Assembly (NCBI GenBank): GCA_036645795.1
Contig: JAVXNL010000004.1
Coordinates: forward strand, 1-48,075
Origin: Clostridia bacterium
Lineage (GTDB): Bacteria; Bacillota; Clostridia; TANB77; CAG-465
Length of the DNA stretch: 48,075 nt
Direction of reading: 5' to 3'
In this document: positions 22,836-41,268 of the stretch, in pieces
Layout of the letters: each line of letters starts with the position of its first letter
Numbering within the stretch: position 1 is the first letter of the stretch
Position numbers and translations under genes: made by a program
The notes under the pieces: model-generated
Told to the model about the DNA's origin: nothing
The model's input: only the letters and a program-made list of their open reading frames with translations
Database searches by the model: none

Positions 22836-22971
22836 AAGTTTCACCCCCAAACTTCACGAAATATATTTTATTAATAACTTGTTTTCTTGTTTTTATATTT
22901 TCAATATGTAGAGGTATTAATAGATATCTCTACATATTGCTTAATTTTTAAAATACAATTCCTTATTTATA

Positions 22972-26520: not shown

Positions 26521-26521
26521 A

Positions 26522-27978: not shown

Positions 27979-29175
27979 TTATGGATTACATATTGGACAA
28001 GGATAAAATCCTTTTATTGTTGTAGTAACTTTAGCTTTATCATTACCAGTTGTTAGTGAAGCTTCTGCTAAAGCTGCTGCCGCTTGTTTAGATGTTGTAT
28101 ATCTTGGTGATATACCCTCATGTATAGAAAGACTATACTCTGGACAATTTACATCCTTATGATATAAATTAGTTTTAAATTTAGAATTACCACTAGGAGC
28201 TGTCAAATAAAATCTTGTAACTAAATCAAGTTTTGACAAGCCATAAGCTTTTGAGTTTAAATATTTATTTCCAACTGATAGCCCTTGTACAAATGCCATC
28301 ATTCCAATATTGTCTATACTTGAGTTTATATCAGCTGTAGTTGTTGGTGGAAATGAGAAATTATAACTAATTCCTGCAGATTTTGCATATGAATTATTTG
28401 CATTTACTGCATATCCCATTTCTGCTATAACCGAATCTGCTATGACAACCTGTCTTTTTTGATTCAAATTATTTACTATAGTAGTTGCAATTCCTGCATC
28501 ATTATCGTATAAATCTTTGTTATTTATACTGTCTCCAATATAAAAAGACTTAACTTGATAACTTTCTTTTCTACCACCATTTCCATAATACATACCTCTA
28601 TGTACTATATAATCATCTAATGAAAAATCAATTGTATGTGTAGAAACAATATTATTTCCTGTTAAAACGCCTTCTTCTATAGTTTTATTACTACCATCTT
28701 TTTTTATAGAATACGAGTATGTATAGTATCTTTTTGGTTTTAAAGCATGTTGCATTAAATCATTACCACTATTATCTTTAAAAGTCTCTATTGATGATAC
28801 CTGTACCCCATTATAGTCAATTATTGCAATTGCTGGGATGAACATTTGCAAATAATGCTCTGCATTTGCATTTCCTTTTATGCCAAGATTATTATATAAC
28901 GAATTTAAAAATGTATCTACTGCTACTTGTGCATTTACACTTACTTTTTTATCTGTAGAACCAGAATATCCATAATCTATATCTTGATCAGAGTTTTCTA
29001 CTTCTTTCATTTGGTTTGCTGCGTCTTGAGCTGCTGAATTTATTATTTTATTATAATACATTTCTTGCTCTTGTGCTTTTATTGTAAAAGATACATTTAC
29101 ATACACTGTTATAATCATTGGGAGTATTACTCCTATAAATATTAGTGCAAAGTCAGTTAATTTCAAATTTTTCAC
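27979..29175 (-). CDS. TadE/TadG-like pseudopilin-type protein with a C-terminal Ada-like zinc-binding motif
   Basis: The N-terminus KLTDFALIFIGVILPMIITVYVNVSF resembles the TadE N-terminal hydrophobic segment. The C-terminus LYHKDVNCPEY...(~45 aa)...GFYPCPICNP matches the pattern YH....C ... G(F/Y)xPCxxCxP. The start may be the TTG at 29166 (SD GGGGTGA) rather than the GTG at 29175. Confidence 0.55.
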   Translation of the reverse strand: MKNLKLTDFALIFIGVILPMIITVYVNVSFTIKAQEQEMYYNKIINSAAQDAANQMKEVENSDQDIDYGYSGSTDKKVSVNAQVAVDTFLNSLYNNLGIKGNANAEHYLQMFIPAIAIIDYNGVQVSSIETFKDNSGNDLMQHALKPKRYYTYSYSIKKDGSNKTIEEGVLTGNNIVSTHTIDFSLDDYIVHRGMYYGNGGRKESYQVKSFYIGDSINNKDLYDNDAGIATTIVNNLNQKRQVVIADSVIAEMGYAVNANNSYAKSAGISYNFSFPPTTTADINSSIDNIGMMAFVQGLSVGNKYLNSKAYGLSKLDLVTRFYLTAPSGNSKFKTNLYHKDVNCPEYSLSIHEGISPRYTTSKQAAAALAEASLTTGNDKAKVTTTIKGFYPCPICNP

Positions 29176-29238
29176 CCCTTTACTAATTACATTTTATTCT
29201 GCTTTTTATATTTTTAAATTATTATTTCCAAAATCAAT

Positions 29239-29634
29239 TTAAGGACCTACGTAAGTGATTTTTGCATATCCACTTCCATATCTTAGACCACTTTTAGTTT
29301 GAGTATTACTAAGTGTGTATGTAGAATGTCCACCAACATAGCCTGAACCGCCAGCGCCTCCACTATTAAATGAAACTCCTGCGCATCCGCCCCAGTAGCC
29401 GCCACCGCCGCCACCTATATCTGTAGCTTCAGTAACATTTTGGCCATAAAATACTGAATTTCCACTATTTTGAGTTCCAGGCTTTATACGGTCATCTAAA
29501 CCAATCAGTTCCCAAGGGTTATATGTAGTTCCTCTTTCACCAGATAGGCCACCACCGTCTCCACCAGAACCATCATCAATTTCACCTGCATTTTCTCCGC
29601 GTAATATTATCAGAACCACCGCCGCCGCCAGCAA
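29239..29634 (-). CDS. 3' fragment (glycine-rich domain continuation) of a frame-interrupted TadE-like gene
   Basis: This ORF has no SD or signal of its own. Its sequence GSGGDGGGLSGERG...GGGGGGYWGGCAGVSFNSGGAGGSGYVGG continues the glycine-rich domain that begins in 29582-31309. Confidence 0.65.
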   Translation of the reverse strand: MLAAAVVLIILRGENAGEIDDGSGGDGGGLSGERGTTYNPWELIGLDDRIKPGTQNSGNSVFYGQNVTEATDIGGGGGGYWGGCAGVSFNSGGAGGSGYVGGHSTYTLSNTQTKSGLRYGSGYAKITYVGP

Positions 29635-31309
29635 CTATTAGTCTATTATTTATACTGTTTCCAAGTATTCTAATATCAGTTCCGCCACCGCCGCCAAATC
29701 CTACATTAAAACCTGAACTTGCAGGATTCTTATTGCCATTTCCGCCACCGTTATATCCACCTTTACTCCAATTAGAAGCCTCAGGAGTTCCTCCTGTATA
29801 CACATACAACAAATCGCCTTCATTTAATTTAGTATTTCCTGATGAGTATCCACCTTTTCCAGCTCTACTGCCTTTTCTTTCATCTCTTTCGCCGCCGCCA
29901 GATGCACCCCAAACCTCTAGTTTATATGTTCCAGCTTTTGCTATTTGAACTTTTTGCTCCCCTTCAACATAATCAAATGTCTGTCCTACTATATTAAAAG
30001 GAGACATATAATGAGTATTTATATCGACTGTAGGTGACAAATTACAACCAATTTCGCCAATTTTTCCTTGTATATTACTTATTTCATAATAAAATTCACC
30101 TATATCAGATGCATCGTTAATTTGTACATTTCCAGAAAATTTAGAAAGATTTGCAATATTTTTAAGTCCCTGAAGATCAGATACTTTATTTTTTCTAACA
30201 ATATAATAAATACTGTCACCTATATTAACATTTTCTGCTTTATCTAAAAGATATTTTCCAGAAACTATTTTATATGGACCTTCAATTCTCTCATCTACTA
30301 ATCCAATATCTTTTGATATATTAATAATACCAGATTCTGCATATTTATTTTTACTTGCAATTCCTTGCAATATATTAGCTGGTAGTATAAGTTTAAATCT
30401 CTTTGTTGAAGCGCCTGGTGAATTTATATCAAAGTACTTATCTAAATCACTTTTTTCAAAATTAAAAGTCACTTCATATTTTATAGTTTTAGTATGCTTT
30501 TCTTCATTTGTAACACTACTTATAAAGGTTGTCCTAGTAGGAGATGTTTTTTTACCAGAAAGTGTAGTTGAATCTTTAACCTCAGCTAACTGTAAATTTG
30601 CTATTAGCTTATCACTTAAGTTTTTCTCTTCGTTTATGTCTAAATTTATTACCTCAGCCATAAAAGTTATCTTTGTATCTTCTGGAAATTTATACGCTTG
30701 TTTAACCTCTGTTAACTTTACTGCTATATCATCTTTAAATAAATTACTAGTAAGTGTTGTTTCCCAAGTATTATTTTTTACAATTCCACCATAATCTACG
30801 ACAATTCTTTCTTTTTGAGAAGCTGGCGCTATAAGTTGGAATACTGAACCGGCCATTGTCATACTACTATTTTTTAGTTTTACATATAGTTGATCACCTT
30901 TATTTAAAAAATACACATCATTTTTTAATTTTTTACGATTTAGAGATGATGTTTTATCATTTCCTTTAGAATAATTAGCGCCTTCAAATATATCTTCATT
31001 ATAGTCTACTTCAAACTGCTCATTATACTCTGCTGCATTTAAAGTATCTTTTGTAAATATTTTCTTATGTGCCTCTATCTGTATATCATATATATTACCG
31101 GTTGCAGATATTTGATCAATATATTTTTCATAATTGGCCTTGTCTAAATATCCAGTATTTAAAACTTCATCTACAAAATTAGTTGTAGCTTTTAGAGCAA
31201 GATTATATGACATGTTATCTTGTCTTTCAAAATAATTATAAAGTGGAAATATAATTATTAACAATACAAATACAATCATTGTTATTACTACACTTAAATT
31301 ATCTTTCAT
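29582..31309 (-). CDS. Large TadE-like pseudopilin with a C-terminal ALK/LTK-type glycine-rich domain (5' fragment of an interrupted gene)
   Basis: The N-terminus MKDNLSVVITMIVFVLLIIIFPLYNYFERQDNMSYNLALKATTNFVDEV is paralogous to the 32284-33432 N-terminus. The C-terminus TYKLEVWGASGGG...GKGGYSSG...LYVYTGG...GGGGGTDIRI...RLIVAGGGGGS is the typical Gly_rich pattern (PF12810-like). Confidence 0.7.
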   Translation of the reverse strand: MKDNLSVVITMIVFVLLIIIFPLYNYFERQDNMSYNLALKATTNFVDEVLNTGYLDKANYEKYIDQISATGNIYDIQIEAHKKIFTKDTLNAAEYNEQFEVDYNEDIFEGANYSKGNDKTSSLNRKKLKNDVYFLNKGDQLYVKLKNSSMTMAGSVFQLIAPASQKERIVVDYGGIVKNNTWETTLTSNLFKDDIAVKLTEVKQAYKFPEDTKITFMAEVINLDINEEKNLSDKLIANLQLAEVKDSTTLSGKKTSPTRTTFISSVTNEEKHTKTIKYEVTFNFEKSDLDKYFDINSPGASTKRFKLILPANILQGIASKNKYAESGIINISKDIGLVDERIEGPYKIVSGKYLLDKAENVNIGDSIYYIVRKNKVSDLQGLKNIANLSKFSGNVQINDASDIGEFYYEISNIQGKIGEIGCNLSPTVDINTHYMSPFNIVGQTFDYVEGEQKVQIAKAGTYKLEVWGASGGGERDERKGSRAGKGGYSSGNTKLNEGDLLYVYTGGTPEASNWSKGGYNGGGNGNKNPASSGFNVGFGGGGGTDIRILGNSINNRLIVAGGGGGSDNITRRKCR

Positions 31310-31401
31310 AAAATTATATTCCCCCTCAATTTTTAGATATTATTACTATTTTTTTACATCTACTAGCTTTTAATTTTCTTAACTTTTATATAAAGTTTGT
31401 A

Positions 31402-31845
31402 TTAAGACTTAGGTGTTATTGTTACCCTTGCAATTTTTTTGCCTTTCGCATCTACGTTTTCTGATTCATATCTTAAAACATACTCTCCTGTACCAATTGC
31501 ATCTTTTGCTTGTTCATAATTTAATGTTGAAGCTAAAGCACCATGTCTACCAGTTATGGTTAAATTATATCTATTTGTCATATTATCTGCCGAAGAAACA
31601 GAGTACATATCTTTTTGAACATAATTAAAATAGTATGAAATTACTTCAGATGGACTTAATGTTATTACATTATCTACTGGTATATTTTCAATTATTGCTT
31701 TATCTGATTTCACATTACCAAATTCATATGCTTTCTCAGCCAATGTTCCAACTGATGTAAATAAATATATAGTTCCTGTAAGTGCTATTATAAATATAAA
31801 AATATATACCCCTGTGTATATTGATTCATAAGACGAATCTTCCAT
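31402..31845 (-). CDS. Short pilin-like protein with an N-terminal hydrophobic helix (minor pilin candidate)
   Basis: 147-aa ORF with a strong SD AGGAGGTGA. The N-terminus is MEDSSYESIYTGVYIFIFIIALTGTIYLF, followed by a small globular part containing SPSEVISYYFNYV, which is similar to its neighbours. Confidence 0.55.
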   Translation of the reverse strand: MEDSSYESIYTGVYIFIFIIALTGTIYLFTSVGTLAEKAYEFGNVKSDKAIIENIPVDNVITLSPSEVISYYFNYVQKDMYSVSSADNMTNRYNLTITGRHGALASTLNYEQAKDAIGTGEYVLRYESENVDAKGKKIARVTITPKS

Positions 31846-31874
31846 AACTTCACCTCCTTTTTATTTATGTATTA

Positions 31875-32264
31875 CTATCTTGAAAAGTTAATTCTAGTCA
31901 TATCTTTTTGTCTTACTACTGTTGCGTTATATGTTGCAACTAAAGCGCCTGCGTTTTTTTGACCATTAACCTCAGCTTGCATTTTATCAATTGCGCCTGC
32001 TCCAGAAGCTCCTGACACACTAACTACTACTCTTGTATTGCTTCTATATTTTTTTAATGCATTTAAAACTTCAACTGACGTTTTTTTAGTATTTTCATAA
32101 GCATCAAATTCATTAAACTCACCAGTTATAGAATTATGTGTTTCATATACATGTTTATATATTTTTTGTATCTGCCCCAGGCTAAAGAATATCCCAGAGG
32201 TTATAACTATCGTTACAAATATTGCTGCTGCAATTGTTATAGCTTTATTAGACATTACATCCAA
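31875..32264 (-). CDS. Short pilin-like protein (class-III-signal-like N-terminus)
   Basis: 129-aa ORF with a TTG start preceded by AGGTAGGTGAG. The N-terminus is MDVMSNKA-ITIAAAIFVTIVITSGIFF, and it has the shared downstream motif TSVEVLNALKKY. Confidence 0.6.
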   Translation of the reverse strand: MDVMSNKAITIAAAIFVTIVITSGIFFSLGQIQKIYKHVYETHNSITGEFNEFDAYENTKKTSVEVLNALKKYRSNTRVVVSVSGASGAGAIDKMQAEVNGQKNAGALVATYNATVVRQKDMTRINFSR

Positions 32265-32283
32265 GATATCTCACCTACCTTCT

Positions 32284-33432
32284 CTATCTTCCCTCAGCTA
32301 TTTTTGTTTGAATAAGCAATGCATCTACTGAACTTACAGTTCCATCTTTGTTTATATCTGCATTTTCAAAATTAATACCTGATAACGTTAAATCCCTTGC
32401 AACATGGCCTTGTACAACATATGCATCTTCATAACTTACTATTTTATCTCCATTTGCATCTCCTGGTATACGCTCTGTAGCAATCACAATGTTTAATTTA
32501 GCCTCATTTACTTTTTTTCTAAGTTCTCCTGAATCTGCTATATCTACTACTCCATCATTATTATAATCTGCTGCAATATAATTTGCTCCTGTTAAATTTA
32601 CTTTGCCTTTCAAGTAATTTTCTATAGTATTTAAATCTTTTATATCTACTAGATGATCACCGTTTGCATCTCCTTTTTGAAGAGTAGTACTAACTATTCC
32701 ACCTGTATTTTCCGTATGTTCTGCTGCAGGTGTTGTATCTATCATGTTTATAAGGTTTTCTCTGTAATCTTCATTTTCTATTGTTCCACCATAATTTATA
32801 TATACTCTTGTATTATTCCCTGTATCTACACCAAACGTTAGAGTATTAAATAATACTGTTGCAATTGTTACGTTAGTATTTTTTATTATAACGTTAAACT
32901 CATCTCCTACATTCATTGTATATGTATTTGCATCTTTATTATATATATTTGGTATAAGTGGTATATCTTTTATATTCATGCCTTTATACGAATTTATAAA
33001 ATTTTCTGCTGTTCTTCCTCCAAGTGGTTCTATTATCTCCTTTTCAGAAAATCTTTCTTCAGCTAATCCATAAGATAAAATATTTTGTGCCTCCTTCAAT
33101 CTTTCTGGATGTAAAATATAATCTGTTTTCCCAGTTATATCTGTATATGTAGTATTGTATTGATAAATTACAGGGTAATATTTTTTAGCTACATGCTCAA
33201 GCTTTACATCATATACATTCCCTGTTGCGCTTAAATTAGATACAAATTCATTATACATTTGATTTGTAATATACCCTTTACTTGTAACATTATTTACAAA
33301 ATTTGATGTTATTTTTAGAGCTAGCCCATATGATATGTCATCTTTTTTTTCAAAGGATATATATAATGGTAACATAAAAAAAATTATAACTGATATTAAA
33401 ATTGTAAATACTCTTTGTAGATTATCTTCCAT
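32284..33432 (-). CDS. TadE-like pseudopilin fused to two tandem dockerin modules
   Basis: 382-aa ORF with SD AAGGAGGG upstream. The N-terminus is NLQRVFTILISVIIFFMLPLYISFEKKDDISYGLALKITSNF. The C-terminal part has four EF-hand-like dockerin segments: GDANGDHLVDIKD, ADYNNDGVVDIAD, GDANGDKIVSYED and ADINKDGTVSSVD. Confidence 0.8.
   Translation of the reverse strand: MEDNLQRVFTILISVIIFFMLPLYISFEKKDDISYGLALKITSNFVNNVTSKGYITNQMYNEFVSNLSATGNVYDVKLEHVAKKYYPVIYQYNTTYTDITGKTDYILHPERLKEAQNILSYGLAEERFSEKEIIEPLGGRTAENFINSYKGMNIKDIPLIPNIYNKDANTYTMNVGDEFNVIIKNTNVTIATVLFNTLTFGVDTGNNTRVYINYGGTIENEDYRENLINMIDTTPAAEHTENTGGIVSTTLQKGDANGDHLVDIKDLNTIENYLKGKVNLTGANYIAADYNNDGVVDIADSGELRKKVNEAKLNIVIATERIPGDANGDKIVSYEDAYVVQGHVARDLTLSGINFENADINKDGTVSSVDALLIQTKIAEGR
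32293..32673 (-). other. Two dockerin domains (aa ~254-308 = nt 32509-32673; aa ~324-380 = nt 32293-32463)
   Basis: Each module has two D-x-N-x-D-G-x-(I/V)-(D/S)-x-x-D calcium-loop segments, each followed by a short helix (LNTIENYLKG, SGELRKKV, AYVVQGHVAR, ALLIQTKIAEG). Confidence 0.8.
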
Positions 33433-33466
33433 ATTACCCTCCTTTAATTTCTATATACTTTTACTT

Positions 33467-33865
33467 TTACTTTACAATTGTTATAACTGTTGCATTTCCT
33501 TGCCTACTTTTAGTTAGATTATAACTTTGATTTGGATATATTCCTCTTATTTCAGACTTAAAAACACTATTATCTATTCCTCCATCTAAGTTATTTATAT
33601 TAGCCTTACCGTTCATACTAACTTGAACATTATTGTTTTCTAAATAATAATATAATATATTTTTAGCCTCAGTTCCAGTTATTCTATTTTTCTCTAAAGA
33701 CTGAGCTATATTTTTGTTATATAAATCTGCTATATCTACACCAGGTCCTGCTGCTCTTACCATATCACGTGAAGCACTATAATATGTCATAACTGCAGAT
33801 ATAGTAATTATTGCTATAAATACACCAGCGCCTATAGTAATAGACCTTGTAACAACATCTTCCAT
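33467..33865 (-). CDS. Short pilin-like protein (class-III-signal-like N-terminus)
   Basis: The track ORF starts at GTG 33874, which lies inside the SD AAGGAAGGTGG. ATG 33865 has proper spacing and gives MEDVVTRS-ITIGAGVFIAIITISAVMTYY. It has the shared motif TGTEAKNILYYY. Confidence 0.6.
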   Translation of the reverse strand: MEDVVTRSITIGAGVFIAIITISAVMTYYSASRDMVRAAGPGVDIADLYNKNIAQSLEKNRITGTEAKNILYYYLENNNVQVSMNGKANINNLDGGIDNSVFKSEIRGIYPNQSYNLTKSRQGNATVITIVK

Positions 33866-34041
33866 ATATGCCACCTTCCTTATTTTACTTGAATATAAAT
33901 TTTAAAAAATACACTAAAAATATTTGATTTAACTACATTTTTAGCCATACTTTTTAAAACATATATATTAGTGCAAAAGGTACATAATCTAATTATTCCT
34001 TAAATTATATACCTTGTTGCAATAAATATTTTAAACTTTTA

Positions 34042-34446
34042 TTAATTACTTGTAAAGGTAATTCCAGTAACATTATTTCCTGTACCATTTCTTGTTAAAG
34101 TAGATGTATACAAATCCCCTGGATTTACTGTTGAAGTTAAATTACCTATTCTACCAGCACCTGTAGCAGTATTGTTAAATACTACATTATTTACAGTTAC
34201 AGTTAGATTAGGATCTGTGTAATATCTCTTTACTGCAGCTATTACCTGAGAGCCTGTTACTCTAGTATTCCCATCATAATCCGCTGTAAGTTGTGCTTGT
34301 AAACTTGATGATACATTCTCTGCCTCATCTTTACCTTTATTTAACATATCTTGTCCAAGACCTGTTATTAGCATTACTGCAGCTATTACTAAAATTGTTA
34401 TAAACAAACCTACACCAATCATAATTGCTTTTTGTGCATTATCCAT
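34042..34446 (-). CDS. Candidate major pilin of the Tad-like locus (non-Flp, class-III-signal-like N-terminus)
   Basis: 134-aa ORF, the first pilin-like gene after the platform gene, with SD AAAGGAGGGG upstream. The N-terminus is MDNAQKA-IMIGVGLFITILVIAAVMLITGLG. The body is Thr/Asn/Gly-rich. A 167-nt non-coding gap follows it. Confidence 0.6.
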   Translation of the reverse strand: MDNAQKAIMIGVGLFITILVIAAVMLITGLGQDMLNKGKDEAENVSSSLQAQLTADYDGNTRVTGSQVIAAVKRYYTDPNLTVTVNNVVFNNTATGAGRIGNLTSTVNPGDLYTSTLTRNGTGNNVTGITFTSN

Positions 34447-34518
34447 TTTTCATTTCCCCTCCTTTAAATAGACTATATATTAAACTTTTTTAAAGTTTAA
34501 ATCTTATTTGTTTTTTAG

Positions 34519-36573
34519 CTAAAAATTCATATTTGTAAAGAAAGTCATCATCTGCATAATACTTACTACCATAAGTGGTGCAACTAAGTATCCACCTATT
34601 AATATTACCATTGGAGTAAAACCTAATACTTTACCATAGCTTACTTTTTTATGTACAACTCTTTCATTTCCTTCTTTTCTTTTTTCGTAGAAAAAGCTTC
34701 TTTCTGTTTCTAATTCATCAAAAGCTTCTTTTACAGGAATCCTTTCAACTGCTGATTGCAATTGTTCTACAATTCTTGTAAAATCTTTATATGGTACTGC
34801 TTCTTTCAGCTCTTCCAAAGCTTGTTCTGCACCTGATTCATAATTGTTTAAACATGTAGCTATTGGTTCTTTAAAAGCATATGAAAATCTTCCCATCCAT
34901 TCTAGGATTGTTTGTACATCTATTCTATCAATATACATAAGCATTAATATAACTGATTGAAATTGCATTATTTCATTTTCTTTTTCCATTTCTCTTATTT
35001 TATTTTTTATAATTAAAAGTATTGATGGACAGTAATATGCAATTATACCAATTAAAAATGCTGATAATACTTGCCAGAATTTAACATATGAATTTTTAAC
35101 TGTATTTATTTTGCCATATACCCTGTCTACTGCGGTTTTATCAACCTCACCAGTATCTGGATCTACGAAATCTGTTTGTAATTGTTCTTTTGTTACATTA
35201 CTATTCTTATGAGATTCTATATAGCTTTTATCACTCTCCCTTATAGCTCTAGATGCCTCTTCTTGCTCCTCACTTAATTTACCAAATGATAAAAACTCTT
35301 GACTTACTTGTGTATATACACCTGATAAATCAATATATTGCATATTAAGTATTAATATAAAACTCAATAAAAATGCTACTACTGCTGATGTAAGTTTATT
35401 TACATATAGCCATTCTATTGTAAGGTAAGAGTTGGTATTCTTTATAAGAGCCTCTTCCTTTTTATATTTTCTAGTATGCTCTCTTGGTTTAAAAGCATCT
35501 ACTAGCATTTTAACAATTGTTACCCTATATAACTTATCTTGCCATTTTGCATTTGATACTCTGTCAAATTTTATTTCTTCAACATCTTCTTTTATTATTC
35601 TAAGCATTAAATAAGATATAAATATTGATACTATTATTATTGATTGTATCAAAAATCCAATACCACTTGCATAAAAGTTTGATAACGCCGGGAAACTTGA
35701 CTCTGCCCATGATTGCAATGGTTTTATTGCAACCAGTGGAACTACAGCTATAATATTTAAACTCCTAAACATATAGTTTATTTTATCTCTTTTTAATATT
35801 TCAAGATATATTTCACTCAAAATATTATTTAAGTTTCTAAGATAAACTGATGCTCCAGCAACTTTTCTATCACCTAAATCATATGTTAGATAAGATACTC
35901 CTGCAAATAGTTTTAAAAATCTATTTGGAGCTGTATCATAATACTTCTCTAGCTCAATTTCTGGATTATCTGCAAGAAGAGCATCTTTAATTTTTCTAAG
36001 TTGTGGTACAATTTCTTTATCTCCTAAATCATCTATTGCAGTATTAAAAGATTCATCTACCATACCATGTTCATGGAAGGCATGTCTAATACTTGTAAAT
36101 GCTTCGGGCATTTGTTTTAATATTTTCTCGGATACTGATGTTATACCAATGTCTATCATTTTTTCTGTTATTATTAATACACCTATTATAACAATAAGTG
36201 ACATATATAAATCATTAACCAAATTTAATAAAACAAATAAAGATATAAATAAAAATACTACTGCTATAAGCATTGATTTACCAGTTCTTCTTCTAAGCTC
36301 ATATTCTGTGTAATCATTTGTCATTTCCATTTTCAATCTTGTTTTTTTCGTATAATATTTTAAAACTGGCATTTTTACAAATGTAAGATAAACAACTAAA
36401 AATACTTTATCAAATCCATCTTTTACATTAAATTTATTTTTTACTACTAACTTGTCTTGAGCAAAAAGTATACTGTTTTTTTTGTATTTTTTCTTTACGC
36501 TCATATAATATATGCTTACAGCAAGTATTCCTACTATAGCAAATACTAATAAACCAATTGCTATATATAACAT
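34519..36573 (-). CDS. Polytopic inner-membrane platform protein with two T2SSF-like halves (fused TadB/TadC, GspF/PilC family)
   Basis: 684-aa ORF with multiple TM segments. It has two cytoplasmic helical regions with the T2SSF-like pattern (MPEAFTSIRHAFHEHGMVDESFNTAIDDLG... and ...IMQFQSVILMLMYIDRIDVQTILEWM...EPIATCLNNYESG). It starts 4 nt after the ATPase gene ends. Confidence 0.7.
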   Translation of the reverse strand: MLYIAIGLLVFAIVGILAVSIYYMSVKKKYKKNSILFAQDKLVVKNKFNVKDGFDKVFLVVYLTFVKMPVLKYYTKKTRLKMEMTNDYTEYELRRRTGKSMLIAVVFLFISLFVLLNLVNDLYMSLIVIIGVLIITEKMIDIGITSVSEKILKQMPEAFTSIRHAFHEHGMVDESFNTAIDDLGDKEIVPQLRKIKDALLADNPEIELEKYYDTAPNRFLKLFAGVSYLTYDLGDRKVAGASVYLRNLNNILSEIYLEILKRDKINYMFRSLNIIAVVPLVAIKPLQSWAESSFPALSNFYASGIGFLIQSIIIVSIFISYLMLRIIKEDVEEIKFDRVSNAKWQDKLYRVTIVKMLVDAFKPREHTRKYKKEEALIKNTNSYLTIEWLYVNKLTSAVVAFLLSFILILNMQYIDLSGVYTQVSQEFLSFGKLSEEQEEASRAIRESDKSYIESHKNSNVTKEQLQTDFVDPDTGEVDKTAVDRVYGKINTVKNSYVKFWQVLSAFLIGIIAYYCPSILLIIKNKIREMEKENEIMQFQSVILMLMYIDRIDVQTILEWMGRFSYAFKEPIATCLNNYESGAEQALEELKEAVPYKDFTRIVEQLQSAVERIPVKEAFDELETERSFFYEKRKEGNERVVHKKVSYGKVLGFTPMVILIGGYLVAPLMVVSIMQMMTFFTNMNF

Positions 36574-36577
36574 CCTA

Positions 36578-38470
36578 TCACCTCCAAGCTGTATCTATGA
36601 AATTGTCAAAAGTTCTAATATCTTCTGATGACATATTATCTCTCATAGCTTTAATATTTTCTTCGGTCATTGGATTTCTAAATACATATTTTCCATCTAC
36701 AAACTCAACTATATTTTTATATGTATAATTGTTTGTTTGTGTCATATGTTGGAAATATTCAACTGCATTGTCCATGAATTTTTCCATCTTTTGGTCCATT
36801 TCTTTTGCTTTTCTATAATCATTATTATATGTAAATGTTGGTTCCAATGGTATACATTCTGTTATTCTTTCAATAAATCTTGTACCATCTACACCTCTTT
36901 TTAAATGTATATCAAAGTTTATTACTTGAACAACTTGTACTTCTGCTACATTTTCAGAATTAAACATTCCAATTTTAAGTAATGAGTTTCTAAGTGCTGT
37001 TATTAAGTTTGGAAAAGTCTTAGCATGATGAGTAAACAAAGTAAACTTTGATGCAACCTGTGCCATTTGAATCATCCAAGCAGCAACTGGATCTGTTGCA
37101 ACCTCACCTAAGATATTAACTCCACCATCAGTTTTCTTCTGAACATCTAGTCCTTGTTGTCCATTTATTGTATCTGTTTCTCTAAGAGATAATATATTGT
37201 GGTATGGGTAAATCTTCCTTAAATGTAATTCAAATGCTGTCTCTTGAACCCTTATAGTAATTGTCGGATATAAATATTTCATTATAGCCATCAATAATGT
37301 AGTTTTACCACAACCTTGCTCACCTGTTATCGCAGTTACTCTAGCACCTCTAATTAAATACTTAAGTAATTCAATAACTTGTTCTTTACCTTCATGACAA
37401 AGTAGTTGTTCAGGTGATATTAATGTTGGAGGAGCAAATTTTCTTACGAAAAAAGCCCATGATTCAGAAAAGTTTGGTCTTAAAACAACTACCCTGGATC
37501 CATCTTTCATTTCATTTATTTTATAACCAACAGATTCAGACAACTGACCTGGATTATTATATTTATATATATTTTGACATACCCTTTTAAGTTCTGTTTC
37601 ACTTCCAAAAGATAAAAATGACAAATACGTCGCTTTACCTTTATAAAATATCCAAACAGAATCATAAGACATTGGTATTTTTCTATCATTCATTTGATCT
37701 AAATAGTCATCCATACCTACTACTTGATCTAAAAATGATGGTGGAATACCTGATACACCACCTGATATACCATCAATGTTCATATCACGTATATCATCTA
37801 CTACACTGTACCCTTTATATCTTTGATAAATTCTTTGAACTACAATTTCTAATTTATCATCAAAGGATAATGTATCTTGATTTACTTCTAAAGCAAATAT
37901 ATTATCGATTTCTTTTTCTGTTATAACATAAGAAGAAACTTCCGGATCAAATTCAAATTTAGGAGTGTCTAGCTTATATTTTGTTATAATTTGTGTTAGT
38001 GCTTCTGCTTTATATTGCTTTTTGTAAATATGCATTAATATCTCAAATTTATCTTGAGATTCTAACTGTTCAAAATCTTCAAAAGGTATTGCATTATTTA
38101 TATTAAAGTTGTTTACTTTATAGTTGTTTCTAAGCAAGTCAAACATTAGTGTTTTTACATACTTTTTATCACTTGCATCCGCATAACCAGCACCTTTTAA
38201 AGCTTTTTTTAGCTCATATTTTACATTTTTTCTTCTTTCAAATTCCTCTTCAGAAAGCGCTAAATCATATAAATTCATTCTAGTTATCTCATCAAATTGC
38301 TTCTTTATAAATTCCTGCATTTTCTCAAGACTAAATTTTGCTTTCTCTCTTGACAAATCATTTACTTGTTCTTTAGTTTCAGATTTTTTAATCTTATACC
38401 AGAAGAAGCCTCCTACAAAGGCAATAAGTAAGATTATCAATATAATATTTAATATAAATGCAATACTCAT
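36578..38470 (-). CDS. CpaF/TadA-family (T2SSE/VirB11-like) secretion ATPase with an N-terminal transmembrane anchor
   Basis: 630-aa ORF with SD AGAGGTGA 5 nt upstream of the ATG. It has Walker A ITGEQGCGKTTLL, Asp box RVQETAFEL, Walker B-like GVNILGEV and His box TLFTHHAKT. The N-terminus MSIAFILNIILIILLIAFVGGFFWY is a predicted TM helix. Confidence 0.8.
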   Translation of the reverse strand: MSIAFILNIILIILLIAFVGGFFWYKIKKSETKEQVNDLSREKAKFSLEKMQEFIKKQFDEITRMNLYDLALSEEEFERRKNVKYELKKALKGAGYADASDKKYVKTLMFDLLRNNYKVNNFNINNAIPFEDFEQLESQDKFEILMHIYKKQYKAEALTQIITKYKLDTPKFEFDPEVSSYVITEKEIDNIFALEVNQDTLSFDDKLEIVVQRIYQRYKGYSVVDDIRDMNIDGISGGVSGIPPSFLDQVVGMDDYLDQMNDRKIPMSYDSVWIFYKGKATYLSFLSFGSETELKRVCQNIYKYNNPGQLSESVGYKINEMKDGSRVVVLRPNFSESWAFFVRKFAPPTLISPEQLLCHEGKEQVIELLKYLIRGARVTAITGEQGCGKTTLLMAIMKYLYPTITIRVQETAFELHLRKIYPYHNILSLRETDTINGQQGLDVQKKTDGGVNILGEVATDPVAAWMIQMAQVASKFTLFTHHAKTFPNLITALRNSLLKIGMFNSENVAEVQVVQVINFDIHLKRGVDGTRFIERITECIPLEPTFTYNNDYRKAKEMDQKMEKFMDNAVEYFQHMTQTNNYTYKNIVEFVDGKYVFRNPMTEENIKAMRDNMSSEDIRTFDNFIDTAWR

Positions 38471-38493
38471 TGTTTCACCTCTTTTTATCTATT

Positions 38494-39309
38494 TTATACA
38501 TCTCTTATTTTAGCAAGTTCTATTATTTTTTCAACAATTCCATTAACTTGCGATATAAAATAACCATTATAGTCTTTTATATCTGCGTTCATATTTCTAT
38601 AGAAGAAATCTATTACATTTCCACTATTACATGCATCTGCAAATAAATAGTTATGTGGTACTGTAAATATTGGTTCTTTTATAGTGTTTTTTAATTTTAT
38701 ATTAGATGAATTAAATTTTGCTTTACCTTCATAGTCTCCAATAACAAATATTTTACTTTTGTTTTTCAACTCATCCATGTTATTTACTGTCTCAAAAAAG
38801 CCATCCAGTTTTACAACATCTTGATTTACAACACATACAACAATTTCGGCATCTAAAAGAGTGTCTGATATAAATTTATCGTCTGCAGACTTTGGTAAGT
38901 CAATAAATACTACATCATAAATTTCCGCTGCTTTTCTTGTGATATATGGTAAATTGTTTACAAGGTCCGAATATCCATCCATATCTTTAGAATTCATTCC
39001 ATATAGTATATCAAGTCTATCTTTTAAAACAGGCTTTGCATAGTTTTGTATAGCATCAGATGTTAATTTGTTACTTGTTACAAGCCTTATTAATGCACTA
39101 ATTCCAATACTTGAATTATCAAATACTCCACTTGACTTTAAATCATCATACGGTGTAAATGAAGATTCTATCTTCTTAGAATTGTAGTTACCTTGCATAA
39201 GTAAGCTATTAACTTTATGAGCTATTCCCATTAAAGTACTAACTGCAATTGCGGCATGTGTATTACCCGACATATTTTTTGTCGGACTCCAAAATACAAT
39301 TCTTGGCAT
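38494..39309 (-). CDS. TadZ/CpaE-like ParA/MinD-fold protein with a degenerate Walker A
   Basis: 271-aa ORF. IVFWSPTKNMSGNTHAAIAVSTLMG occupies the position of the deviant Walker A (KGGxGKT) but lacks the lysines. A Walker B-like VVFIDLPKS is present. Its start overlaps the upstream stop (TAATG at 39307-39311). Confidence 0.6.
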   Translation of the reverse strand: MPRIVFWSPTKNMSGNTHAAIAVSTLMGIAHKVNSLLMQGNYNSKKIESSFTPYDDLKSSGVFDNSSIGISALIRLVTSNKLTSDAIQNYAKPVLKDRLDILYGMNSKDMDGYSDLVNNLPYITRKAAEIYDVVFIDLPKSADDKFISDTLLDAEIVVCVVNQDVVKLDGFFETVNNMDELKNKSKIFVIGDYEGKAKFNSSNIKLKNTIKEPIFTVPHNYLFADACNSGNVIDFFYRNMNADIKDYNGYFISQVNGIVEKIIELAKIRDV

Positions 39310-40022
39310 TAATCTCTCCTCCTTTTAATTTGTTTTGTAACTTCTTTTGAAGTTACATCCTCTATTATCTGTGATGTTAAATCAGAAATTAGCCCTATAT
39401 ATGTTTTAGTATGCTTTTTTATATCTATAAGTCCACTAAACTGTGAGTCTATATCTACTAATTTGTCTTGTTCTTCAAGTTGTACTTCGTATTCTGGCTC
39501 TTGCCATTTCACATTATAACTGCTGATTTGAGTTTCAAAATACTCTTCTGCAGCTCTTGACATATATGTCTTATATAGTACCTTAGTTATCTTTATATCT
39601 TCTTCTTGAGGATTATATACCCTTATTGCTTTTATTAAGTCTTTATTTTTTACAACTGATAATATACTTGTATCTACAAAAAAGAATAATTTATCTATTC
39701 CTCTTGTTCTAAAAAACTCATACCCTTTTGGGCTGTCTATATCAATTATTATATAATCATACAATGATATATTAATTCCTTGATCTACCATATAATTTTC
39801 TACATCATGCATACTATCAAAACCTACAGCAAAGTCTATGTTATTATATTGAGTAACATATGATCTCCCCATATTGTCTAGTGATGGTACAACACATTTT
39901 ATTTTTTGGTCTAAGGTGGCGTCTACAACGAGCACCGCCTTATCCATTATATTTATTGTTCTAGCAAGATTTATAGCAAAGTCATATTTATCTACATATC
40001 CCATCATTCCAATTACTTGCAT
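39309..40022 (-). CDS. Second TadZ/CpaE-like ParA-fold protein with no recognisable P-loop
   Basis: 237-aa ORF. VIGMMGYVDKYDFAINLARTINIMDKAVLVVDAT follows the MinD/ParA N-terminal layout without GKT, and it has a Walker B-like YDYIIIDIDSP. Confidence 0.5.
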   Translation of the reverse strand: MQVIGMMGYVDKYDFAINLARTINIMDKAVLVVDATLDQKIKCVVPSLDNMGRSYVTQYNNIDFAVGFDSMHDVENYMVDQGINISLYDYIIIDIDSPKGYEFFRTRGIDKLFFFVDTSILSVVKNKDLIKAIRVYNPQEEDIKITKVLYKTYMSRAAEEYFETQISSYNVKWQEPEYEVQLEEQDKLVDIDSQFSGLIDIKKHTKTYIGLISDLTSQIIEDVTSKEVTKQIKRRRD

Positions 40023-40085
40023 CTATTATTCCTCCTACGTTTGTTAATTTACATTCCTAAAAAAACCATCTTTTTAATTTATTAG

Positions 40086-41174
40086 CTATTTTGCTGGTTT
40101 ATTAGTTGTTTCTGGTGCTGGTGCTGGTGCAGTTTGTGCTGAGTTTTTAGAATCTAATAATTCTTGTCTTTGCGTTTTTTGATTTGTTATTGATTGTTGT
40201 GCTCCAGTTACTACATTTTTATATTCTTCACCGCTTGTAGTTTGATATCCATTTATTCCATTTTCTAAATTTGAACGAGCTTCAGTACTTAATTTTTCTT
40301 TTGCTTGTTCAAGTATATTTTTATTTGTTTTCATCATATCCATAACTTGAGAGTTTGGCTGATAATTTTCCATTGTTCTTGTAACAGTAGAAGCATAGTT
40401 TTTATATTTTGATATTAAATCAAATAATATTTTTGTTAACTCTTCTTCAGTTGCCTCTTTTATAGTTGCTTGTTCTTTTTTAATTTCTTCTGATACATAA
40501 CCTTTAGCTGCAACTGCTGAGTCATCAGATATCTTTATTTGTGCATCTGCATCTGCATATTTTGTTGCGTAAAGTTTTGAACCTTGTTTTAAGAAAGAAT
40601 CAACCATAGCAGAATTTAAAAGTAATCTTTCATCTTCTGCAAGTTGTACCCACATTGTTTGTCCTGCTATTTTAGTTACATTTTTTTGTGCAAGTACAAT
40701 ATAATCTGTACCATTTGGATACATTATTCTTACATCTACTTTATCACCTTCAACTAAATCACTTGGCATAAGAACAGTATTTACTTCTTGATCTCTTACA
40801 TCAGAAGAAATTATTTCATCTGTTACCATAGATTTAGTTAATGGAACTTTTGCTGCTATATTATATTTAGCAACTTTACCTACAGCATAATCTCCATCAA
40901 GAGTTGTTATAGCATCAGTAGGTACTGTACTATTGTGCACTCTTGTTGTCGCAAGCATATCTGCGCCAATCATCTCTCCTTGTATAACATCTTTGTTTAA
41001 TGTTGTTACCATTTTAGTATAAATAGAATTAAACTTTTTGTTTGTTCCTTTTTCATAAGTTTTAACAGTAGATATTGCCCACCAAACTGTTAAACCAATA
41101 CCTACAACGCCAACTGCAAGGCCAATAGCTGCACCTTGCCACATTTTCTTTTTAATTTGACTCATTCCTACCAT
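40086..41174 (-). CDS. cpaB: CpaB/RcpC-like pilus assembly protein (N-terminal TM plus SAF domain)
   Basis: 362-aa ORF with TM segment GAAIGLAVGVVGIGLTVWWAI. The SAF-like segment is LNKDVIQGEMIGADMLATTRVHNSTVPTDAI...VGKVAKYNIAAKVPLTKSMV. The C-terminus has a Q/T/P-rich tail. Confidence 0.7.
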   Translation of the reverse strand: MVGMSQIKKKMWQGAAIGLAVGVVGIGLTVWWAISTVKTYEKGTNKKFNSIYTKMVTTLNKDVIQGEMIGADMLATTRVHNSTVPTDAITTLDGDYAVGKVAKYNIAAKVPLTKSMVTDEIISSDVRDQEVNTVLMPSDLVEGDKVDVRIMYPNGTDYIVLAQKNVTKIAGQTMWVQLAEDERLLLNSAMVDSFLKQGSKLYATKYADADAQIKISDDSAVAAKGYVSEEIKKEQATIKEATEEELTKILFDLISKYKNYASTVTRTMENYQPNSQVMDMMKTNKNILEQAKEKLSTEARSNLENGINGYQTTSGEEYKNVVTGAQQSITNQKTQRQELLDSKNSAQTAPAPAPETTNKPAK

Positions 41175-41239
41175 ATATTTTCAACCTCCATAAAACACTC
41201 TAATAATTTTTACATATATGTGTTATTTTCATATTAATT

Positions 41240-41268
41240 AGTATATATCGAAGTTTTAAAAAAATCAA
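41240..41268 (-). promoter_or_regulatory. Possible SigA-type promoter of the Tad-like operon (TTGATT - 17 - TATACT on the minus strand)
   Basis: The reverse complement of 41263-41268 is TTGATT and that of 41240-41245 is TATACT, with a 17-nt spacer. It lies ~65 nt upstream of the cpaB-like start. Consensus match only. Confidence 0.35.

Follow-up and report, generated by a model that had tools for sequence, protein, structure and literature searches.

A divergent Tad-like gene cluster of the TANB77 type in a gut Clostridia bacterium and its relatives on Bacillota megaplasmids

The published TANB77 cluster and the extent of the locus

What kind of machine is encoded by the tightly packed genes at positions 27979 to 41268 of the window, the whole 48,075-nucleotide stretch of Clostridia DNA analysed here? 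The listing of open reading frames in the window gives 13 co-directional frames on the minus strand, A to M, as closely packed and overlapping as the first-pass annotation had described (the start of C overlaps the end of B, and E begins 4 nt after D); as K and L are one frameshifted gene, these make up 12 genes, not 13. By its architecture, the locus is the published Tad-like pilus gene cluster of the order TANB77, a system that is very divergent and already known. Kim et al. (2024, Nat Commun 15:10726) found this cluster conserved across TANB77, an order of uncultured gut Clostridia, described it as proteins 927-938 of CAG-245 sp000435175, and obtained Foldseek matches to TadB, TadC, TadZ, CpaE, CpaB and TadE. 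The earlier statement that such a system had not been studied functionally in Clostridia is therefore out of date, the exact cluster having appeared with the same component assignments. The terminal protein, "pilin 938", was found to be immunostimulatory; a single recombinant protein of the cluster was assayed, with no filament shown and no EM reported (Kim et al., 2024). No filaments of this system have been reported in any organism, and mechanistically it is unstudied.

The two loci share gene order, protein sizes, TM counts, a scarcity of Pfam domains and the kind of host, a low-GC, uncultured gut member of the Clostridia. In both, a CpaB-like protein is followed by two small COG1192-type proteins, a ~630-640-aa ATPase with one TM segment, a ~690-aa protein with eight, several small proteins with one TM segment, a ~178-aa protein and a large terminal protein. 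A to E measure 362, 237, 271, 630 and 684 aa here, against 358, 231, 280, 640 and 693 aa in the cluster of Kim et al.; after E come proteins of 134, 135, 382, 129, 147, 575 (+131) and 398 aa here, against 165-237, 178 and 621 aa there. The hydropathy counts for the ATPase D (one TM segment) and for E (eight) equal the published ones, and E is without a known domain in both. Orthology to proteins 927-938 is thus suggested by architecture rather than by alignment. The present locus differs in its class 2 proteins, which are larger and decorated with dockerins and a glycine-rich domain, in its shorter terminal protein (398 aa versus 621), and in having the additional co-transcribed genes N and O and a second paralogous module.

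How far does the unit extend? Upstream, a hairpin followed by a T-rich stretch (AAAGTTGTAAT-N-ATTACAACTTT, 41321..41353, minus strand), read from the sequence after the preceding dac gene, marks its boundary. A weak sigma-70-like site lies at 41268-41240 (9/12 matches), in a promoter scan that was not above chance. Downstream, the range assigned in the first-pass annotation, 27979-41268, is too short at its low end, since N, a TM-anchored accessory surface protein (26522..27964, minus strand), starts 14 nt after M, the accessory gene O (22972..26532, minus strand) overlaps N, and both have homologs at the same position in sister systems; in this clade they belong to the locus. N follows M in 15 TANB77 loci, all of the window's clade, and its C-terminal 200 aa are homologous to a Cu-amine-oxidase-N-domain protein at the same position on a Cohnella plasmid. 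O is a giant secreted protein of 1186 aa with its own Sec-type signal sequence and without a Pfam, NCBIfam or PDB match; the stretch of residues ~825-1133 has its homolog in the C-terminal part of the DUF5704 proteins that occupy this position on Cohnella and Lysinibacillus plasmids. Between O and P, a palindromic hairpin with a 17-bp stem (22902..22939) is the probable end of the transcription unit. Going beyond the published description, the unit probably reaches to ~22,900 and includes N and O. Past this point lies a second paralogous surface-protein module (P, Q, S+R, T and U; 15777..22850, minus strand), the link of which to the machine is uncertain. As is visible in the translations, Q is paralogous to N, S+R to O and U to P; S and R are one frameshift-split gene, and R matches the same region of the DUF5704 proteins as O.

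ATPase, putative platform and accessory proteins

D (36578..38470, minus strand, 630 aa) is a secretion ATPase of the TadA/CpaF family, anchored by an N-terminal TM segment (residues 1-19 by hydropathy) and extended N-terminally by ~270 aa. Searched as a single sequence against the PDB with phmmer, it matches CpaF at E=1.6e-7, with the Walker A motif (GCGKTT), Asp box, Walker B motif and His box aligned; the family profile reaches CpaF at E=2.4e-13. VirB11 is similar at the P-loop only (22 bits), and neither PilB, GspE nor FlaI was matched in the PDB profile search (PilB and GspE at E<=0.01), while Pfam T2SSE stays below its cutoff (E=0.0035). As far as sequence comparison tells, CpaF is the sole real relative of D in the PDB. 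This agrees with the earlier call of an anchored CpaF/TadA-family ATPase, and a clustering with T4SS or competence ATPases, named at the time as the finding that would speak against it, was not seen. D is 59-87% identical across 80 loci, and homologs occur in at least 582 GTDB species.

E (34519..36573, minus strand, 684 aa) has eight hydrophobic segments by hydropathy and belongs to a family with 927 representatives at the 50% identity level. It had been annotated as a fused platform with two T2SSF-like halves, of which the fusion has stood and the T2SSF domain has not been seen: E has no sequence match in Pfam, NCBIfam or the PDB, Pfam finds no T2SSF domain in 73 family members and PDB profiles find none either, its AF2 model (pLDDT 72.6) gives no match in a Foldseek search of the PDB, and no internal repeat was found. 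Profile comparison with hhalign gives a weak signal to TadC/T2SSF that is collinear and above controls, at probabilities of 13-37%: TadC is matched at E of about 4e-4 (probability 37%), in the comparison with the C-terminal half at E=4.6e-4 (probability 33%), and the N-terminal half matches TadB+C at E=0.002 (probability 13%), with reversed controls at <=1.2%. The fusion itself is supported by the Clostridium botulinum plasmid pRSJ2_3, on which the two halves are separate, adjacent genes; the proteins of 298 and 359 aa after the ATPase there match the N-terminal and C-terminal halves of E, with 25 and 54 bits. E would thus be a fused platform of the TadB/TadC type.

Of the three proteins encoded upstream of D, A (40086..41174, minus strand, 362 aa) has one N-terminal TM segment by hydropathy, a SAF domain and a long C-terminal region. 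Its SAF match exceeds the Pfam cutoff (24.8 bits versus 21, E=3e-5), its match to the CpaB model TIGR03177 (E=4e-6) remains under that model's cutoff, and its family profile matches the SAF domain of FlgA (E=0.002). While the RcpC C-terminal domain was not detected in A, the protein is CpaB/RcpC-like, as had been proposed, and it is syntenic in 79/80 loci. B (39309..40022, minus strand, 237 aa) is a small MinD/ParA-like protein in TadZ-like position; without a Pfam match, its family profile finds MinD in the PDB (E=3e-4), aligned at the P-loop and Walker B regions, and G8, K12 and D34 are invariant in the family. C (38494..39309, minus strand, 271 aa), a second small cytoplasmic protein in CpaE/TadZ-like position, reaches ParA (3ea0) in the PDB at E=0.16 only, and hhalign gives a probability of 5% for its relation to the B family. 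The description of two ParA-fold proteins with degenerate P-loops is borne out in part: B resembles MinD and has a degenerate P-loop (Walker A), and for C the ParA fold is not supported by these sequence tests; by Foldseek, proteins 928 and 929 of the published cluster are TadZ and CpaE, respectively (Kim et al., 2024).

Pilin-like proteins and missing parts

In line with the earlier description of four short proteins with N-terminal helices and three larger ones, F, G, H, I, J, K and M each have a single N-terminal hydrophobic helix by hydropathy. Class 1 comprises the short ones (129-147 aa) and has the leader M[DE]x(1-6)[KRQ][AS], after which comes I/L; Gly at -1 is lacking, as are Glu5/Tyr6. 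Processing, if it occurs, would be expected at this [K/R/Q]-[A/S]|[I/L] site. The candidate major pilin is F (34042..34446, minus strand, 134 aa): residues 1-32 hardly vary among 36 homologs, its gene is duplicated in some loci, and its AF2 model (pLDDT 78.8) has a helix at residues 2-57 and a four-stranded head, with no PDB match by fold or sequence to any solved pilin or other entry. In the G29-x-G31|Q32 stretch of F, a signal peptidase I site is conceivable in principle. The other members of the class also have one TM segment each: G (33467..33874, minus strand, 135 aa) shares the N-terminal motif, and its true start is likely the ATG at 33865, giving MEDVVTRSITIG; I (31875..32264, minus strand, 129 aa) has the motif NKA|ITIAAAIF; and the class 1-related J (31402..31845, minus strand, 147 aa) has the variant YES|IYTGVY.

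Class 2 proteins have a conserved N-terminal module of ~165 aa and swappable C-terminal domains, with variable C-termini (163-1036 aa). H (32284..33432, minus strand, 382 aa) carries a pair of type I dockerin modules, seen as two stretches of Pfam Dockerin_1 (E=2.4e-17), and K+L (29239..31309, minus strand) ends in a glycine-rich domain of the ALK/LTK type. The latter is split into the ORFs K (29582-31309, 575 aa) and L (29239-29634, 131 aa) by a 1-nt frameshift near 29600-29610, with positions 6-114 of PF12810 in K and 112-242 in L. Class 3 is represented by M (27979..29175, minus strand, 398 aa), from a family of 227-876 aa with the conserved N-terminus MKIxDFALIFIGxxLP. In distant clades the cluster closes with M, whose place after a ~178-aa class 2 protein parallels that of proteins 937/938 in Kim et al.; by position, M would be the counterpart of "pilin 938". 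The description of the larger proteins as TadE-like is unsupported by Pfam, the PDB or hhalign: searched with Pfam, 36 class 2 modules, six of which have weak DUF4320 matches, and 28 class 3 modules gave no TadE (PF07811) match, and hhalign against six genuine TadE/F proteins gave probabilities of <=0.3%, not above reversed controls.

With canonical Tad/Flp systems (Aggregatibacter, Caulobacter Cpa, Pseudomonas), the locus shares the TadA/CpaF ATPase, the SAF/CpaB protein, one or two accessory proteins resembling ParA, the placing of the putative platform next after the ATPase, a series of proteins with N-terminal helices and the overall gene order. It differs in its membrane-anchored ATPase with a 270-aa extension, in its platform, which is a single fused polypeptide without a recognisable T2SSF domain, and in its pilins, which in this system have 130-190 aa and a short acidic leader. 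Further, it has no secretin, no TadD/TPR protein, no TadE signal and no Flp pilin or TadV/CpaA. Searches of Pfam and the window's ORFs found no Flp-type pilin, A24 peptidase or secretin, so that the absence of these parts, reported at first sight, is borne out, and neither the window nor any of 85 related and comparison loci (1.76 Mb altogether) has a multi-TM ORF with the peptidase motif GxGD[VIAL]K. Both this lack of a linked peptidase and the invariant short non-Flp leader common to the pilins go beyond the published description. Of the marks of Tad/type IVc systems, the TadA/CpaF-family ATPase and the CpaB/RcpC SAF-domain protein are thus present, and a Flp-family major pilin (50-80 aa, G|xxxxEY), an A24 TadV/CpaA peptidase and TadE/TadF/TadG are not; of those of competence (Com) and type IVa pili of monoderms, the ComGA/PilB-type ATPase (by the missing PilB/GspE match), ComGB/PilC with T2SSF, the G|FxxxE leader and the ComC/PilD peptidase were all not found. 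Archaeal class III signal peptides resemble the leaders found here in being short and in having [K/R] at -2, a small residue at -1 ahead of the hydrophobic helix, and no Glu5. An origin of Tad from archaeal type IV pili (Epd-like and related) has been proposed (Denise et al., 2019). The locus differs from these in its ATPase, for which bacterial CpaF is the nearest relative; moreover, a FlaK/PibD-type peptidase was not found here and archaeal pilins and archaellins match none of the proteins.

Plasmid-borne relatives and the probable function of the machine

Of 80 species loci, 79-80 keep A to E in synteny; the hosts are uncultured low-GC gut MAGs named "Clostridia bacterium" or "Clostridium sp. 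CAG", consistent with the description of Kim et al. A confinement to uncultured Clostridia does not hold, since at least 35 megaplasmids of cultured Bacillota, both Bacilli and Clostridia, carry the same module; this adds further to the published account and makes an experimental test possible. Sister modules on Lysinibacillus sphaericus pBsph, a Cohnella herbarum plasmid, Butyrivibrio proteoclasticus pCY186, C. botulinum pSWKR38E2, a Paenibacillus polymyxa M1 plasmid and others have homologs of A, C, D (42-53% identity), E (~31%), classes 1-3, N and O, in the order seen here, and their pilins share the N-terminal motif; on the Cohnella and Lysinibacillus plasmids the module is complete, down to N- and O-type proteins. 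In some of the sister modules an additional gene for a receiver-plus-ParA "true TadZ" lies upstream, and some have cell-wall hydrolases and SLH or Cu-amine-oxidase-N anchoring domains. They are annotated as hypothetical throughout, and none has been studied. pRSJ2_3 likewise has an RcpC/CpaB-domain protein upstream, but its ATPase is shorter (468 aa), a Pfam-valid T2SSE and not anchored, and its pilins, of Flp size (57-77 aa), have a class III leader, KKGG|LS.

Taken together, it is probable that the locus is one species' copy of a conserved TANB77-type Tad-like (type IVc-related) filament system. The core of the first-pass annotation, a divergent Tad-like type IV filament machine of a monoderm, agrees with our tests and with Kim et al. 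(2024), including the anchored ATPase, fused platform, non-Flp pilins and decorated minor pilins, without linked peptidase or secretin. In such a machine, a hexameric D, held at the membrane by the helix at its N-terminus, would dock on E as a fusion of TadB-like and TadC-like platforms, assisted by B and C as small ParA/MinD-like scaffold proteins, and the bitopic SAF/CpaB-like A would probably form a ring outside the membrane. ATP-driven movements of E could then lift the single-pass pilin-like proteins from the membrane and stack them via their conserved N-terminal helices, with F as the probable major subunit and G, I and J as minor subunits. Class 2 (H, K+L) and class 3 (M) would probably serve as priming or tip subunits with exchangeable C-terminal modules; as these modules (two dockerins, a glycine-rich domain) would be displayed, the filament would be adhesive, with a modular tip. 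The TM-anchored N and the DUF5704-type giant secreted O would be co-transcribed partners in this clade.

It is unlikely, though the best of the alternatives, that the machine builds only a short pseudopilus and acts in T2SS-like export or surface display across the thick wall rather than as a long adhesive pilus, its substrates being O, dockerin-bound partners and the decorated class 2 and 3 proteins. Such a role would suit the giant secreted proteins, which are coupled in translation to the locus and recur at this position on plasmids, the many minor-pilin-like genes beside one major-pilin candidate, the dockerins, which imply recruitment of other proteins, and the lack of a retraction ATPase or peptidase. 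However, most other TANB77 clades lack N and O and have M as the final gene of the cluster, and O has its own Sec-type signal sequence; moreover, the extreme N-terminal conservation and duplication of F are typical of an abundant polymerising subunit, and CpaF, the closest relative of the ATPase, drives true pili.

Rather less probable still is a DNA-transfer or mating device, a conjugative/aggregation or DNA-uptake pilus that TANB77 domesticated from plasmids. The occurrence on megaplasmids points this way, as do the genes for NlpC/P60, a cell-wall hydrolase and SSB that flank the module on pCY186, the cell-wall hydrolase inside that of pSWKR38E2, and the best NCBIfam match of D, "TadA family conjugal transfer-associated ATPase" (E=1e-5, well short of the cutoff). 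Yet the window's ORFs include no relaxase, coupling protein (VirD4 or FtsK-like) or VirB4, which in a conjugative T4SS would accompany a VirB11-type ATPase; there are no ComEC- or ComEA-type genes nearby, all 35 plasmids are typed as non-mobilizable, the VirB11 similarity is confined to the P-loop, and the TANB77 locus is single-copy within a conserved housekeeping and sporulation neighbourhood.

A reading of the small proteins as common surface proteins, exported by Sec or anchored in the membrane, and of the ATPase and E as a transporter unrelated to filaments, is very improbable: pilin, T2SSF and TadE homology went undetected in our sequence and PDB-fold tests, but the relationship of D to CpaF is solid, SAF/CpaB, ParA-like, ATPase, platform-sized protein and a run of N-terminal helices are arranged as in canonical Tad loci, an invariant stretch of 32 residues is unusual for a signal peptide, and Foldseek matched proteins of the published cluster to Tad and Cpa components from TadB to TadE (Kim et al., 2024).

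The ATPase and its neighbours

What kind of machine does this locus encode? From 41,174 to 27,979, 13 co-directional minus-strand ORFs (A to M) are spaced by 0-167 nt or overlap, in a window of about 28% GC with strongly negative GC skew and nearly all genes on the minus strand. The divergent Tad-like locus described in the first-pass annotation is confirmed, and its interpretation was right in outline, but its claim of novelty was wrong and several of its component labels are unproven. The end that it assigned to the locus, at 27979, is also too early: the run continues into N (26522-27964, minus strand, 480 aa), which starts 14 nt past M, and O (22972-26532, minus strand, 1186 aa), which overlaps N. 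A hairpin with a 17-bp stem follows O (22902-22939), and another (~41,321-41,353) lies between the locus and an upstream S11 D-Ala-D-Ala carboxypeptidase gene, which is kept in 43 of 80 related loci.

When every locus protein was run against Pfam and NCBIfam, only SAF, dockerin and glycine-rich domains scored above cutoff. Among the profiles that the first-pass annotation had expected for a Tad system, SAF was thereby recovered, T2SSE stayed below its cutoff, and T2SSF and TadE gave no match. The SAF domain belongs to protein A (40086-41174, 362 aa; this and all further genes of the locus on the minus strand), where it follows an N-terminal transmembrane (TM) helix and passes the Pfam cutoff of 21 with 24.8 bits; A also matches the CpaB model TIGR03177 at E=4e-6, under that model's cutoff, and its family profile matches the SAF domain of FlgA (E=0.002). 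The family profile of B (39309-40022, 237 aa) matches MinD at the P-loop and Walker B regions (E=3e-4), with a degenerate P-loop, G-x3-K-x-D, instead of GKGGxGKT. For C (38494-39309, 271 aa), the best PDB match of the family profile is a ParA protein at E=0.16, and the B and C families are not significantly similar to each other by hhalign.

For D (36578-38470, 630 aa) the assignment is solid. In a phmmer search of the PDB it matches CpaF (E=1.6e-7), in an alignment that covers Walker A (GCGKTT), the Asp box (ETAFEL), Walker B (ILGEV) and the His box (THHA); the D-family profile extends this to E=2.4e-13 over positions 275-547, and finds none of PilB, GspE, PilT and FlaI in the PDB at E<=0.01. 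By its sequence, D is a genuine TadA/CpaF relative, and the alternative that the first-pass annotation had raised, an ATPase siding with T4SS or competence systems, is not borne out, since VirB11 matches at the P-loop only (22 bits). Conjugative T4SS, Com pilus and T4aP identities were likewise rejected, as the window holds no T4SS or Com components and the ATPase sides with CpaF. D additionally carries an N-terminal TM helix plus an extension of ~270 aa, and its match to Pfam T2SSE (E=0.0035) lies under the cutoff, which marks the family as strongly divergent.

Protein E (34519-36573, 684 aa), with eight hydrophobic segments, occupies the position of the platform. It has no match in Pfam, NCBIfam or the PDB, either as a single sequence or as profiles of 24 and 73 sequences; T2SSF was not found, even weakly, among 73 diverse homologs scanned one by one, a Foldseek search of the PDB with its AF2 model (pLDDT 72.6) returned noise (best E 0.12), and comparison of its halves by hhalign detected no internal repeat. 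However, on the C. botulinum plasmid pRSJ2_3, the E-family HMM matches two separate, adjacent genes after the ATPase gene: one product, of 298 aa, covers profile positions 61-268 (25 bits), and the other, of 359 aa, covers 339-672 (54 bits). E is therefore a fused two-gene pair at the exact TadB/TadC position, so that this split-gene relative supports the fusion of the platform. At the sister locus on pRSJ2_3, the ATPase passes Pfam as T2SSE, one protein has an RcpC domain, and the pilins are Flp-sized with KKGG|LS leaders. In profile-profile comparisons (hhalign) with four genuine TadB/TadC pairs, the C-terminal half of E is collinear with nearly full-length TadC (E=4.6e-4, probability 33%; 37% against TadB+C), the N-terminal half is weaker (E=0.002, 13%), and reversed sequences, serving as controls, reach at most 1.2%; we regard this likeness as suggestive, not conclusive. 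Clustered at 50% identity, the E family has 927 representatives; of these, the 150 that score best are mostly full length (~620-700 aa) with some shorter fragments, so that among them the fused form is the norm.

Pilin-like proteins and the absence of a linked prepilin peptidase

The pilin-like proteins of the 80 loci, which in the window each have a single N-terminal hydrophobic helix, sort into three classes. Class 1 comprises F (34042-34446, 134 aa), G (33467-33874, 135 aa), I (31875-32264, 129 aa) and, more loosely, J (31402-31845, 147 aa). Its N-terminus reads M-[D/E]-x(1-6)-[K/R/Q]-[A/S]-[I/L]-x-[I/V]-G, followed by ~20 hydrophobic residues, a pattern that we take to resemble archaeal class III signals. 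Lacking both Gly at -1 and Glu5/Tyr6, these proteins are neither Flp pilins nor classical type IV prepilins. Residues 1-32 of the F family (MDNAQKAIMIGVGLFITIIIIAAVMLITGMGQ) hardly vary between homologs whose overall identity is only 42-74%. This is what one expects of the core helix of a polymerizing subunit; a Sec signal peptide would seldom show it. The AF2 model of F (pLDDT 78.8) predicts a helix over residues 2-57 and a small four-stranded head; neither Foldseek (best E 0.48) nor a profile search matched it to a solved pilin in the PDB. Nearly all class 1 and class 2 proteins of the window and the 80 loci start with M-[D/E/K]-[D/E/N], making the leader acidic where ordinary prepilins and Sec signals have a basic one; in the F family, the leader residues are themselves invariant.

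Class 2, represented by H (32284-33432, 382 aa) and by K (29582-31309, 575 aa) with L (29239-29634, 131 aa), shares an N-module of ~165 aa (…FPLY..FE[RK].DD.SY.LA…). Lengths in this class run from 163 to 1036 aa, so that whatever follows the N-module is an add-on: in the window, two type I dockerins in H (E=2.4e-17) and a glycine-rich domain, PF12810, in K+L. To our knowledge, the lineage of H is not one associated with cellulosomes, and a cohesin partner for its dockerins was not found within the window. K and L are, by their domain content, a single gene, as the PF12810 model covers positions 6-114 in K and 112-242 in L; the reading frame changes through a 1-nt frameshift at ~29,600-29,610, at a junction without a homopolymer. 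Class 3, with M (27979-29175, 398 aa), begins with MKIxDFALIFIGxxLP and spans 227 to 876 aa. Pfam detected no TadE signal in 36 class 2 and 28 class 3 members, and hhalign comparison of all three classes with six genuine TadE/F proteins was negative; the only recurrent signal is a weak DUF4320 match in class 2 (six of the 36 members, best E=0.018).

Flp pilin, prepilin peptidase and secretin, which the first-pass annotation had listed as missing, are indeed absent from the ORFs of the window, with no match to Peptidase_A24, secretin or Flp. Nor did any ORF with at least three TM segments carry the motif GxGD[VIAL]K, whether in the window or elsewhere in the 1.76 Mb screened, which took in 85 related and comparison loci; within these loci, therefore, no peptidase is linked to the system. 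A BspA-type leucine-rich-repeat protein elsewhere in the window (5109-7001, minus strand; PF13306, E=4e-76) begins in a pilin-like manner, with MKINKSRG|ISLIVLVITIIVIIILA, and matches GspG weakly (E=0.012). Its leader resembles those of the Flp-sized pilins on pRSJ2_3, a hint that a prepilin peptidase of some kind may still be encoded in the genome.

Distribution in TANB77 and on plasmids

Homologs of D number more than 7,500 in a metagenome protein collection and occur in at least 582 GTDB species genomes. All 80 loci retrieved come from uncultured gut genomes labelled 'Clostridia bacterium' or 'Clostridium sp. CAG', with humans, rabbits, ruminants and chickens as hosts. A to E are syntenic in 79-80 of the 80; D, at 59-87% identity, is the best conserved of the proteins, and the small ones evolve fast.

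The locus belongs to a system that has been published before, the pilus gene cluster of TANB77 (proteins 927-938; Kim et al., 2024, Nat Commun 15:10726, PMC11680825). We matched the two by architecture: they agree in gene order, in sizes and TM counts, and in having no known domains. By position, after a ~178-aa class 2 protein and as the large last gene, M is the counterpart of 'pilin 938', which in recombinant form activated dendritic cells via TLR4 and improved anti-PD-1 responses in mice (PMC11680825). The first-pass annotation's view that the system was unstudied in Clostridia is thus out of date. That study took its structure matches from AlphaFold DB and contains no EM, machine genetics, peptidase or prepilin processing (PMC11680825), and our literature search yielded no other primary paper on the system.

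The cluster has been called exclusive to TANB77 (PMC11680825). However, by tblastn the entire module, with homologs of A, C, D, E, F, H/K, M, N and O in the same order, lies on plasmids of cultured Bacillota, so that exclusivity can stand for gut genomes at most. In its catalytic half, D shares 61% identity with the relative in Cohnella herbarum, 50% with that on pBsph of L. sphaericus and 36% with that on pSWKR38E2 of C. botulinum, compared with ~27% for CpaF, which places the plasmid relatives much closer than proteobacterial Tad. Plasmid pilins show the same motifs as those of the window, for example Cohnella MSNAQKALVMAAGIF…. On the Cohnella plasmid, N matches a protein that is anchored to the cell wall and has a Cu-amine-oxidase N-domain, in the C-terminal part of that protein; on pBsph its position is taken by an SLH-domain protein, to which no N match was detected. 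O and its paralog R match 'DUF5704' giants, proteins longer than 1000 aa, over their C-terminal 300 aa; O itself had no match in Pfam, NCBIfam or a profile search of the PDB, and literature searches for DUF5704, or for pili with pBsph, pCY186 or pBpOF4-01, gave nothing relevant. Within TANB77, the succession of M and N is confined to the clade of the window (15 loci); elsewhere the cluster ends with M, and spoIVB-like (among L052-L079) or uvrC-like genes come next.

Plasmid records with the fused platform number 35, of which 11 are from Paenibacillus, 9 from Clostridium, 8 from Lysinibacillus, 2 from Butyrivibrio and one each from Thermobacillus, Cytobacillus, Alkalihalophilus, Cohnella and Sporosarcina. 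Wherever a gene is annotated at these E matches, it is a 'hypothetical protein'. The plasmid modules differ in an extra upstream gene with a receiver-like N-terminus (pBsph, L082:4186-5637; pSWKR38E2, L083:4948-6588), on pSWKR38E2 also with a CbiA/ParA domain (E=1e-7); it looks like a canonical TadZ/CpaE, a gene that the TANB77 locus lacks. On pCY186 of Butyrivibrio proteoclasticus (L086, 4069-23173), NlpC/P60 and cell-wall-hydrolase genes precede the module and an SSB gene follows it.

A probable filament machine of the Tad lineage and its surroundings

The best-supported model, to which we give good though not full credence, is a machine for type IV filaments that belongs to the Tad lineage and is adapted to a monoderm. 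Its motor would be the membrane-anchored, CpaF-like ATPase D, its platform the fused TadB/C-type protein E, and its scaffolds the ParA-like proteins, with the CpaB-like protein forming a ring outside the membrane. F would be the major subunit and G, I and J minor ones; classes 2 and 3 would serve as priming or tip subunits bearing exchangeable modules. The same components could instead form a pseudopilus-type system that exports or displays the co-encoded giants. A further alternative would be a role in DNA transfer or mating, inherited from the plasmids; all 35 plasmid records, however, were typed non-mobilizable by MOB-suite, leaving room for a transfer function of unrecognized type, and a CpaF-type ATPase in a window without T4SS or Com genes speaks against it as well. 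A third rival would be a transporter unrelated to filaments.

Extending the filament model, one may speculate, with considerable doubt, that the TANB77 cluster and its plasmid relatives form a distinct Tad-lineage branch unseen by current HMMs, with an anchored ATPase, a fused platform without recognizable T2SSF, and pilins, 130-190 aa long, whose short acidic leader is invariant. These pilins would polymerize without a dedicated A24 peptidase, in unprocessed form or after cleavage by another enzyme; dockerins, glycine-rich domains and DUF5704-type giants would be swappable tip modules; and the chromosomal copy would be a domesticated megaplasmid module. Such a branch escapes present HMM-based detection of type IV filaments. 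What is new beyond the published cluster are the megaplasmid carriers, the partners N and O in part of the family, the split-gene relative and the absence of a linked peptidase. TANB77 is an uncultured gut order whose abundance, like 'pilin 938', has been linked to better anti-PD-1 responses (PMC11680825). The megaplasmid copies offer an experimental route to the system: Lysinibacillus sphaericus, Paenibacillus polymyxa, Butyrivibrio proteoclasticus, Alkalihalophilus pseudofirmus and C. botulinum are cultured and partly tractable, and subunit processing without a linked peptidase, the platform and pilins that present models miss, the modular tips and the plasmid-chromosome distribution could be addressed there.

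The window is part of the chromosome of a sporulating, Clostridia-type organism, and sporulation and cell-wall genes surround the locus (41399-42658 and 11834-15651); spoIID, a spoIIQ-like M23 gene, spoIIID, mreB and polC lie downstream of a second surface-protein module. As a promoter scan did not exceed shuffled expectation in the AT-rich DNA of the window, we infer no regulation, by a sporulation sigma factor or otherwise. The second module (15777-22850, minus strand) duplicates N, O and P, and consists of P (152 aa), Q (524 aa, an N paralog), S+R (an O paralog), T (148 aa) and U (150 aa, a P paralog). Its S+R gene (16725-20601) is broken by a 1-nt frameshift at ~20,100-20,130, again without a homopolymer at the junction; S carries a signal peptide and a thioester-like motif, AYCLD…QFALWD. 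The frameshifts in K+L and S+R could be assembly errors, pseudogenes or strain heterogeneity of the MAG. A separate surface-adhesion system near the filament locus is represented by a 1525-aa sortase-type adhesin (343-4920, plus strand), which combines a thioester domain (TED) and an LPVTG motif with 13 SpaA/CnaB-like repeats. At the other end of the window, an 839-aa protein (45472-47991, minus strand) contains RCC1-like beta-propeller repeats (PF25390, E=3e-61), which are unusual in bacteria.
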